Of a stretch of DNA of 64,000 nt, positions 3,936 to 5,769 are shown piece after piece. Below the pieces are notes generated by a model. It was given only the letters and a program-made list of their open reading frames with translations, ran no database searches and was not told where the DNA came from. Both the position numbers and the translations under genes were made by a program. This DNA comes from Candidatus Gottesmanbacteria bacterium (GTDB lineage: Bacteria; Patescibacteriota; Microgenomatia; JAMCYU01). The stretch covers positions 27,439 through 91,438 of the forward strand of contig JAZDMI010000011.1 in assembly GCA_043801155.1 (NCBI GenBank), in the 5' to 3' direction. Each line of letters starts with the position of its first letter. Position 1 is the first letter of the stretch.

Positions 3936-5708
3936 ATGTGTGGAATTTTCGGATTAACCAATGATAAAAATAGTGAAGCCGCTCAGACAATCCTTGATGG
4001 TTTAAAAAAACTGGAATATCGTGGCTATGATTCTTGGGGTATTGCCATAATTCCCAAGGGTTCATCCACGATTCAGGTAGAAAAACACATTGGTAAGATT
4101 GGTGAAGCCAAAACGAATTTGCCCTCCGGATTGATAGGAATTGGTCATACCCGTTGGGCAACTCATGGCGGTGTAACCGATCTTAATGCTCATCCTCATT
4201 TGGACTGTACCAAAAAAATTGCCGTCATTCATAACGGGATTATCGAAAATTACGATGTGATTAAAAAAAGGCTCATTAAATTAGGACATAAATTTATCTC
4301 CGAAACTGATACCGAAGTAGCGGCTCATTCAATTGAAGAGTATTACCAACGGATGTCTTTTACCGAAGCAGTGAGAAAAGCCTTCAACGAGTTTACCGGC
4401 TTAAGCGCGATTATCGTCTTAAATAGTGAAACGAGTGAATTTATAGCCATAAAAACCGGTTCACCCTTGGTTGTTGGTTTTGGTCCAAAAGAAAATTTGA
4501 TCGCGTCCGATGCGGTGGCCCTTTTGAACCATACCCGTCGAGTGCATTTTTTAGAAGATAAAGAGATGGTGCGAGTAACTAAAGATAAAGTTGAATTGTT
4601 TGATTGCCTTTCAGGTCAGCCAAAAAAGCCTAAAATTCAAACTCTTGACTGGCAAATTCAAGAAGTCAATTTGGGGAAGTATCCTTATTACATGATTAAG
4701 GAAATAAACGAACAACCTAAAGTTTTGCGGGGAATAAGCGAGGGTTTGATTGAAGAAATTTCTAATATCGCGCAAATAATTAAAAAATCCTATGGTACCT
4801 ATATGGTTGGTTGCGGTACGGCTTTTTATGCAGCCCTTTCAGGAACTTATCTTTTTTCAAGAATTTGCCATCGTCATGTCAATGCTGCCCCAGGTTCAGA
4901 ATTTGGTTATCTAGTTGACTTTTTAAAACCCAAAAGCCTAGTGATTGCTTTTTCACAATCCGGAGAAACAATTGATATCATTGAATCTGTCGGTAGAGCT
5001 AAAGAAAAAGGATCTAAAATCCTGGCGATTGTTAATAATTTGGGTTCGACACTTTATCGGATGTCCGACTATAAAATCCTTCTTGGTGCAGGACCTGAAA
5101 AATGTGTTTTGGCAACTAAAAGCTTTACCGCTAAAATTGCGATTTTATTACTTTTAGCCCACGCTTTAAATAGCGGATTAGCCAAAGGAAAAATACTTTT
5201 AGATAAGACAATTAAAGAAGTAGAAATTCTATTAAAACCAAAATCTTTAGAAAAGATAAAAAAACTAGCCAACATAATAGTTAATAAAGAAAATATTTAT
5301 GTTATCGGCCGTGGCCAATCATACCCGGTGGCTTTAGAGGCGGCTTTAAAAATTAAAGAAATATCTTATATACATGCTGAGGGATTTGCGGCCGGGGAGT
5401 TAAAACACGGTGTGATTGCTTTAATTGAAAAAGGAACGCCATGTATTATTTTTGCCCCTAACGATGAAACTTATGGAGCAGTCATATCCGGGGCAATGGA
5501 AATGAAAGCCAGAGGTGGATATATCATCGGTGTTTCTTTTAAAAATAACGAAATTTTTGATTATTATATTCCCGTCGATGATTGTGGTGATGCTACAATT
5601 ATCCCCAATGTTGTTGTTGCTCAACTTTTGGGTTATTATTTAGCTCTTAAAAAAGGAAATGATCCAGATAAGCCGAGGAATTTAGCAAAAAGTGTAACTG
5701 TAAAATAA
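3936..5708 (+). CDS. glmS: Glutamine--fructose-6-phosphate aminotransferase
   Basis: 590 aa. Begins MCGIFG (class-II amidotransferase N-terminal Cys) and has two SIS domains. The tail ...NLAKSVTVK* matches the conserved GlmS terminus. Confidence 0.95.
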   Translation: MCGIFGLTNDKNSEAAQTILDGLKKLEYRGYDSWGIAIIPKGSSTIQVEKHIGKIGEAKTNLPSGLIGIGHTRWATHGGVTDLNAHPHLDCTKKIAVIHNGIIENYDVIKKRLIKLGHKFISETDTEVAAHSIEEYYQRMSFTEAVRKAFNEFTGLSAIIVLNSETSEFIAIKTGSPLVVGFGPKENLIASDAVALLNHTRRVHFLEDKEMVRVTKDKVELFDCLSGQPKKPKIQTLDWQIQEVNLGKYPYYMIKEINEQPKVLRGISEGLIEEISNIAQIIKKSYGTYMVGCGTAFYAALSGTYLFSRICHRHVNAAPGSEFGYLVDFLKPKSLVIAFSQSGETIDIIESVGRAKEKGSKILAIVNNLGSTLYRMSDYKILLGAGPEKCVLATKSFTAKIAILLLLAHALNSGLAKGKILLDKTIKEVEILLKPKSLEKIKKLANIIVNKENIYVIGRGQSYPVALEAALKIKEISYIHAEGFAAGELKHGVIALIEKGTPCIIFAPNDETYGAVISGAMEMKARGGYIIGVSFKNNEIFDYYIPVDDCGDATIIPNVVVAQLLGYYLALKKGNDPDKPRNLAKSVTVK

Positions 5709-5730
5709 GGTACGGCTTTTGCTTTGCAAT

Positions 5731-5769
5731 AAAACCAGAAATTTAGCTAAAAGCGTGACCGTAAAATAA
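5731..5769 (+). repeat. Orphan duplicate of the glmS 3'-terminal coding segment (KTRNLAKSVTVK*) with synonymous codon changes
   Basis: The native tail at 5670-5708 encodes KPRNLAKSVTVK*. Positions 5731-5769 encode KTRNLAKSVTVK* using gct/agc/gtg/acc instead of gca/agt/gta/act. A stop lies 10 codons upstream, and there is no start or ribosome-binding site. Confidence 0.7.

Follow-up and report, generated by a model that had tools for sequence, protein, structure and literature searches.

The window analysed here, a 64,000-nt stretch of DNA (G+C content, 35.5%) from a metagenome-assembled genome of Candidatus Gottesmanbacteria, comprises a cluster of cell-division and cell-wall genes, and its GlmS and FtsZ proteins are each 100% identical to proteins labelled Candidatus Gottesmanbacteria in the protein collection. 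The subject of this analysis is the 3' end of glmS (3936-5708, + strand), an intact open reading frame (ORF) of 590 aa with SIS and GATase domains, downstream of which the last codons of the gene are found a second time. The gene is full length and carries the tail DPDKPRNLAKSVTVK, as do all 120 homologues. Its working tail, KPRNLAKSVTVK followed by a stop codon (5670-5708, +), is succeeded by a 22-nt spacer, GGTACGGCTTTTGCTTTGCAAT (5709-5730, +), and by an orphan copy of the tail, K(T)RNLAKSVTVK-stop (5731-5769, +). A small ORF of 67 aa (5807-6010, +), ddl, and mur genes then follow in the order found in relatives, where the small ORF has a weakly similar counterpart.

The repeated part of glmS consists of the final 12 codons and the stop (39 nt), and the copies are direct repeats 61 nt apart. 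The working tail reads AAG CCG AGG AAT TTA GCA AAA AGT GTA ACT GTA AAA TAA and the orphan AAA ACC AGA AAT TTA GCT AAA AGC GTG ACC GTA AAA TAA; 31 of the 39 nt are identical, and the differences, in order, are G/A, C/A, G/C, G/A, A/T, T/C, A/G, and T/C. Third codon positions hold seven of these eight (P = 0.0026). The initial annotation had placed a second copy of the tail at 5731-5769, and its presence was confirmed with an amino-acid score of 50 compared to a best of 31 in 3000 shuffles of the downstream 300 nt, in which nucleotide identity did not exceed 26/39. The next-best downstream tail match in the window, among 75 ORF tails compared, scored 21. The tail repeat is real and far beyond chance. 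Synonymous changes and one amino-acid change had been described as well, and both were recovered, but the count of altered codons is 7 of 12 rather than four, six of them synonymous and one exchanging Pro for Thr. As had been reported, the orphan is without an ATG or GTG start and an in-frame stop lies 10 codons upstream of it (5701-5703); the description of the orphan as start-less needs to be amended only for an in-frame TTG at 5719-5721, four codons upstream.

The pattern of these differences bears on how the second copy arose. Between orphan and working tail, 7 of 33 positions are changed, a level also seen between glmS tails of different Microgenomates classes, where 6 to 11 of 33 are changed. 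A neutral copy made in place would decay at all codon positions, and so one of the two glmS tails appears to have evolved as a working gene end elsewhere. On this codon evidence, the glmS repeat does not appear to be an in-place duplication.

A corresponding arrangement, already pointed out in the initial annotation, is present 3' of ftsZ (16090-17232, +), where it proved to be real. The working ftsZ tail, 13 residues and a stop (17191-17232), is followed by a first cassette (17233-18213) with a NUDIX gene (17302-17769) and a LapA-domain gene (17766-18110), both on the minus strand. This cassette is closed by a unit designated T2 (18214-18318, +), made up of a conserved arm that includes GACTGAAGCTAAAA and of an orphan ftsZ tail at 18277-18318. 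A second cassette (18319-19472, +), with a GH26-like gene (18387-19472), is closed by unit T3 (19473-19539, +), in which the arm has an internal deletion and the orphan tail, an (L) and ten further residues before the stop, occupies 19504-19539. The copy at 18277-18318 departs from the working tail by eight differences, all synonymous, and the one at 19504-19539 is shorter and more degenerate. No integrase was found in the ftsZ cassettes of the window, which hold only the NUDIX, LapA-domain, and GH26-like genes.

The gap between ftsZ and ileS is highly variable among relatives, whose loci are designated here by L and a number. The two genes are nearly adjacent in L053 and L176, which is probably the ancestral state. 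L027 (88% FtsZ identity) carries five orphan ftsZ tails in the gap, all on the ftsZ strand (7430-12344, with units at 7762, 8231, 9067, about 10398, and 11112), which divide the gap into cassettes of unrelated cargo that include a flavin reductase gene and contain no integrase. A weak match to a T-box leader (27 bits against an Rfam gathering score of 93) was observed upstream of ileS in the same locus (12141-12308). In L029 (11786-12539), a single degenerate orphan unit overlaps the end of a 66-aa ORF, and an IS200-like Y1 transposase gene is situated 50 nt past it. Across these units the stretch to the left of the orphan is conserved at the nucleotide level, reading GACTGAAGCTAAAA, about 11 nt, and then TGTCTTACAAATCCCCGC; the (A)FLRQGR-stop part varies only synonymously, including AGA versus CGT/CGC for arginine. 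The upstream part of the units is absent from all FtsZ homologues examined. Promoter-like sequences occur 3' of several orphans.

Intact elements were identified at the same gene end in other relatives. In L175 and L177 (82% FtsZ identity), a tyrosine integrase gene (PF00589) begins 240 nt after ftsZ. The integrase of L177 is followed by cargo comprising primase-like genes (DUF3987, DnaG zinc ribbon), a DUF5659 gene, and a gene for a ThsB-like TIR protein (15362-15931), among others; ThsB is a component of the Thoeris defence system. An orphan tail of ten residues and a stop, preceded by the conserved arm, is positioned 9.5 kb downstream, and an identity block, GGACATTCCGGC, is common to both ends of the element. 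The DNA 3' of this orphan matches the DNA 3' of the native ftsZ tail of L053, and this resemblance of the flanks indicates that the L177 orphan is the original chromosomal ftsZ end. In L178, ftsZ is followed by a cassette with a zeta toxin gene (8830-9561), by an orphan KIPAFLRQRN-stop, and then by an element whose integrase is a second member of the clade; the locus shows tandem accretion.

A third member of the integrase clade, P0353, is encoded by L192, a contig of 6,541 nt whose 127-nt terminal overlap defines a circle of 6,414 bp. On the circle, GATGACTTATAA-ATCCCCGCATTTCTAAGACAGAGGAATTAA (IPAFLRQRN-stop) has no gene upstream of it, and the arm past it contains a terminator-like hairpin; the genes of the circle are the integrase, an HTH regulator, an Omega-repressor-like gene, and about nine unknown genes. 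The same element is integrated in L189, L190, L191, and L197, where its tail is fused to the ftsZ body (...EEDVFE-IPAFLRQRN-stop), and the circle and the integrated copies are 100% identical up to the junction. The free and the ftsZ-integrated forms were found in groundwater metagenomes. These sequences are direct evidence for a circular element with a replacement ftsZ tail in its attachment site. The alignment further revealed an arm of about 75 nt, the P arm, common to the L192 attP, the L177 attR, T2 and T3 of the window, and the L027 orphans. Since this arm is shared between the attP and T2/T3, the ftsZ orphans of the window are best understood as attR-type junctions of decayed members of the family. 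No cargo homology was detected between the intact elements and the window cassettes. The integrase clade is large in Patescibacteria, with 320 homologues, many of them 65-78% identical; in the phage and plasmid collections searched, no integrase is more than 28% identical to the element integrase. A full-text search of the literature yielded nothing relevant on integration at the ftsZ end or on prophage attachment sites in Patescibacteria. The earlier suggestion of a recurrent process at gene 3' ends is supported by these tyrosine-integrase elements with replacement ends, for which the evidence is direct at ftsZ in relatives.

The spacer between the two glmS tails provides a link to these elements. 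In L177, the sequence directly past the element-supplied stop is GCGTAGCTTTTGCTTCGCAATAATC. The glmS spacer of the window, GGTACGGCTTTTGCTTTGCAAT followed by AAAACC, aligns with TAA-GCGTAGCTTTTGCTTCGCAAT of L177 at the same offset from the stop. The block in common, GCTTTTGCTTYGCAAT, is present a single time in the window and, among the compared loci of the candidate phyla radiation (CPR), has exact counterparts only in L175 and L177, where it is located directly past the ftsZ stop and next to the integrase gene. In the window as in L175 and L177, only a few bases separate the block from the stop codon of a gene with an orphan tail.

Comparison of glmS loci gave further indications of what was gained in the window. 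The nearest relatives, L022 (83% GlmS identity) and L026 (73%), keep the gene order and have no second tail copy; their small ORF begins at the glmS stop (ATGA overlap) or 10 nt after it. This position of the small ORF implies that about 100 nt are extra in the window, and the orphan stands on the small-ORF side, as expected if it is the original glmS end. An independent orphan, KPRNLAKRVTAR-stop, is present in a Woykebacteria genome (L009) 47 nt past the glmS stop codon, and it starts at nearly the same codon as the window orphan. Apart from the Woykebacteria orphan, the comparison of glmS ends in relatives, which the initial annotation had recommended, showed none in L022, L026, or about 15 other Microgenomates glmS loci. 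The native tails of the window and of Woykebacteria differ at 4 of 33 positions; a shared mobile origin of these tails was considered and dropped, as this value is not clearly outside the range of other pairs, 6-10.

Taken together, we consider it likely that the glmS orphan is an integration scar, in which the orphan is the displaced original end, the gene received a replacement end from an element, and the interior of that element has since been deleted. In the mechanism proposed, a family of small elements in Patescibacteria would carry in the attP the last 9 to 13 codons and the stop of a conserved essential gene, and a tyrosine integrase would recombine this tail copy with the matching chromosomal gene end. 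The gene would remain intact after integration, ending in element codons, with the P' arm following the new stop, while the displaced chromosomal codons would persist as a start-less orphan of the same orientation at the far junction (attR). Repeated integration and decay could then build cassette arrays, each cassette closed by an orphan tail, as 3' of ftsZ in the window. At glmS, the remnants would be the replacement tail at 5670-5708 on the attL side, with arm-like sequence directly 3' of it, the start of the P' arm at 5709-5730, and the displaced tail at 5731-5769 on the attR side, next to the small ORF, the interior and the other arm having been deleted. Speculatively, the deletion junction may have been a short AATAA(A), which is common to the arm remnant and to P-arm ends. 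Crossover would be expected within or beside ATCCCCGC at ftsZ and close to AATTTAGC at glmS. We infer that the scar was left by a family member that targets glmS, with import of the working tail and removal of the interior by deletion. Of the origins offered in the initial annotation, the one with the best support is an element that integrated at the end of glmS and has since disappeared, leaving a footprint.

Several observations weigh against this interpretation of the glmS locus. No recombinase was recognized among the 30 ORFs of the window scanned against Pfam, and the copies enclose no integrase, P arm, or cargo, only 22 nt, so that what lies between the repeats is at best a remnant. The link to an element is a block of only 16 to about 24 nt, and its 18-mer form has 11 chance matches in a very large viral collection; the spacer argument depends, for this reason, on position and not on the match alone. 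An intact glmS-targeting element was found neither in about 17 glmS loci nor in the viral contig scans. As the cores of glmS and ftsZ are not alike, a different integrase specificity would be required, and the identical runs shared by the glmS copies reach 8-9 nt at most. Finally, glmS is a mosaic when compared with L022 (10001-11776): synonymous third-position identity reaches 0.65-0.80 at about aa 81-240 and 381-450, whereas it is about 0.35-0.5 in the rest of the gene and 0.42-0.48 in 14 neighbouring genes. The mosaic indicates that recombination with foreign glmS DNA, homologous or illegitimate, is active here. The first 80 aa of GlmS also stand out by an unusual divergence, with no homologue exceeding 66% identity there.

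The scans of viral contigs for arm motifs and for the LKLK motif returned chance matches only. The scan of these contigs for glmS tails recovered mostly full-length glmS genes and two start-less 3' fragments near a contig end (L087, 180-310; L093, 9-44). One of these fragments spans 35 codons in a high-GC phage contig, and the other has a K-type tail in a contig that apparently reads TGA as a sense codon.

The proposed mechanism is of a known kind, by analogy with integration into a gene 3' end with a substitute end, as for e14 at icd, and with the arrays at rlmH and fda. In Escherichia coli, e14 (and phage 21) is integrated in the 3' end of icd. As in the elements described here, a tyrosine-integrase element sits inside the end of an important gene, which it provides with a substitute 3' end that differs synonymously, and the displaced original end is kept as a pseudo-fragment at the far junction. 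The present elements differ in their Patescibacteria hosts and in their targets: at ftsZ these are the codons of the C-terminal peptide, to which the glmS tail is added by inference. Only 9-13 codons are replaced, and sizes are small, 6.4 kb for the circle and 9.5 kb for the island, with a glmS remnant of 22 nt. Compared feature by feature with e14/icd, a same-strand direct repeat of the target 3' end marks the junctions at both glmS and ftsZ, and both target ORFs are intact with consensus tails. A scar homologous to the arms is likewise seen at both genes, the glmS spacer resembling the start of the L177 P' arm and T2/T3 the P arm. Intact tyrosine-integrase members are present in relatives for ftsZ (L177, L178, L189-L191), and none was found for glmS; a recombinase and cargo between the repeats are missing at glmS; and the free circle with a gene tail in its attP (L192) is that of an ftsZ-targeting member only. 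At glmS, only scar-level features are present, while the defining features are observed for ftsZ-targeting members in relatives.

Other known systems share parts of this behaviour. In staphylococci, SCCmec and other SCC elements insert into rlmH (orfX) at its 3' end, and ICESt1 and CIME elements accrete at fda in Streptococcus thermophilus. There, too, repeated site-specific insertion at one gene end leads to tandem elements and recombinase-less remnants, set apart by direct repeats of the target end. SCC elements, however, use serine recombinases and short nucleotide-site repeats, in contrast to the recoded coding tails and the arm of about 75 nt seen here. The ftsZ arrays resemble integrons in their one-directional short cassettes, each closed by a unit like a recombination site and mostly without a recombinase, but no IntI is found by the array, the units lack a GTTRRRY end, and each unit includes a coding tail conserved in its amino acids. 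An integron array as such was rejected, as the array adjoins ftsZ in a cell-division cluster and its units end in ...GATAA, with no GTTRRRY visible at the boundaries.

The main rival to an integration scar is recombination with a foreign glmS allele, in which no site-specific element takes part; we regard it as unlikely, though less so than the explanations that follow it. By this route, the 3' part of a foreign glmS and 22 nt beyond it would have entered by homology on the left and been joined illegitimately upstream of the resident tail. Recombination of this kind, also raised in the initial annotation, draws support from the two glmS segments whose synonymous identity to L022 stands above that of the neighbouring genes, and from gene content 3' of glmS that varies widely among relatives. 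It leaves unexplained why the spacer should match an integrase-element arm that lies equally far from a stop codon and why Woykebacteria should have an independent orphan that starts at nearly the same codon, and the 3' end of glmS is itself at baseline divergence and not visibly foreign. Replication slippage generating an in-place 61-nt tandem duplication, with later drift, is far less probable; it accounts for the spacing and the direct orientation of the copies, but not for the concentration of their differences in third positions, for a divergence saturated to the level between classes, or for the lack of any relationship between the sequences that flank the two copies.

A footprint of a Tn7-like transposon, to which the initial annotation had linked the position of the orphan, seems equally doubtful. 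The orphan begins 23 nt past the glmS stop, approximately the Tn7 insertion point, and covers the 12 codons recognised by TnsD, and Tn7 resembles the present case in using the conserved last dozen glmS codons as a safe landing mark. Yet Tn7 transposes beyond the stop with a 5-bp duplication and is not known to copy the glmS tail, whereas a 39-nt coding tail is duplicated here; there are no tns genes and no transposon or transposon ends, the 67-aa ORF, ddl, and mur genes follow in the order of relatives, and the same orphan pattern occurs at ftsZ, which is not a known Tn7 target. The agreement with the attTn7 site reflects only where GlmS is conserved, and the attTn7 link was abandoned. Slightly better placed, but still improbable, is a function for the orphan itself, either as an RNA element that controls downstream genes, a sequence between the copies pairing in turn with the native tail and with the orphan, or as a tiny translated peptide. 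The in-frame TTG four codons upstream and the promoter-like sequences 3' of several orphans would suit such a function, as would an inverted copy of the native tail in the L009 spacer (15 of 17 nt, P < 0.003). Conversely, inverted similarity in the window spacer is not significant, predicted single-sequence folds are no better than those of shuffles, the orphans have no conserved structure and no Rfam match, and the feature is absent from the nearest relatives.

Other candidates were tried and rejected. A structured RNA was dismissed after RNAalifold returned four weak pairs and no covariation for seven orphan units, again with no Rfam match. A small protein with an FtsZ-like C-terminus (in-frame LKLK...IPAFLRQGR) is not tenable, as the left part of the units is conserved in its nucleotides and equals the element P arm, the cargo ORFs are unrelated to each other, and LKLK occurs in no FtsZ homologue. 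Units of IS200/IS605 or REP-like type, considered for the Y1 transposase of L029, do not agree with a tail conserved as amino acids and with units found only 3' of ftsZ. A diversity-generating retroelement was discarded as well; the mismatches are not confined to template adenines, and there is no reverse transcriptase nearby.

Some further features of these loci are recorded for context. A perfect 14-nt palindrome, TGCTAATATTAGCA (5791-5804), which resembles an extended -10 promoter element, is placed between the glmS orphan and the 67-aa ORF; a similar sequence, TGTTAATATATTAGC, is found 3' of the Woykebacteria orphan (L009, 7927-7945), though the downstream genes differ. Within L009 7792-7916, the inverted copy mentioned above spans 7842-7858 and corresponds to 7792-7808, the first half of the native glmS tail, and an 8-nt inverted repeat flanks the left edge of the orphan. 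Elsewhere in the window, two tandem 23-nt units, GCACTTCGTTTCGCTCAGTGCAA (43290-43335), 87% alike, abut the 5' end of a minus-strand tRNA gene (43220-43291).

If the proposed mechanism is correct, an odd sequence at the end of glmS finds its explanation as an ordinary by-product of site-specific integration that repairs its own target. We tentatively suggest, as a possibility that falls short of our favoured expectation, that the elements form an undescribed family of very small circles (from about 6.4 kb upwards) that park in the ends of essential genes, can be retargeted by swapping the tail they carry, and create integron-like hot spots of cassette capture. Such a family would keep its arms while the carried tail is exchanged, and would use recoded codons of the FtsZ C-terminal peptide or of glmS as landing sites. 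The FtsZ C-terminal peptide is the docking site for division partners, and the elements found at ftsZ replace its codons without harming the gene. The glmS scar, which has an arm in common with an element that targets ftsZ, would offer a first hint that retargeting occurs, and gene ends would become hot spots that hold defence and toxin genes without an integron integrase. The targets are unusual, the elements are small, and they might be put to use in genetics: a natural circle of 6.4 kb, whose attP, attB, and integrase are defined, is a candidate from which an integration vector could be developed for a group where genetic tools are very scarce. Mobile elements are hard to recognise in the genomes of uncultured Patescibacteria, and orphan gene tails could serve there as markers that delimit mobile DNA and variable cassettes.

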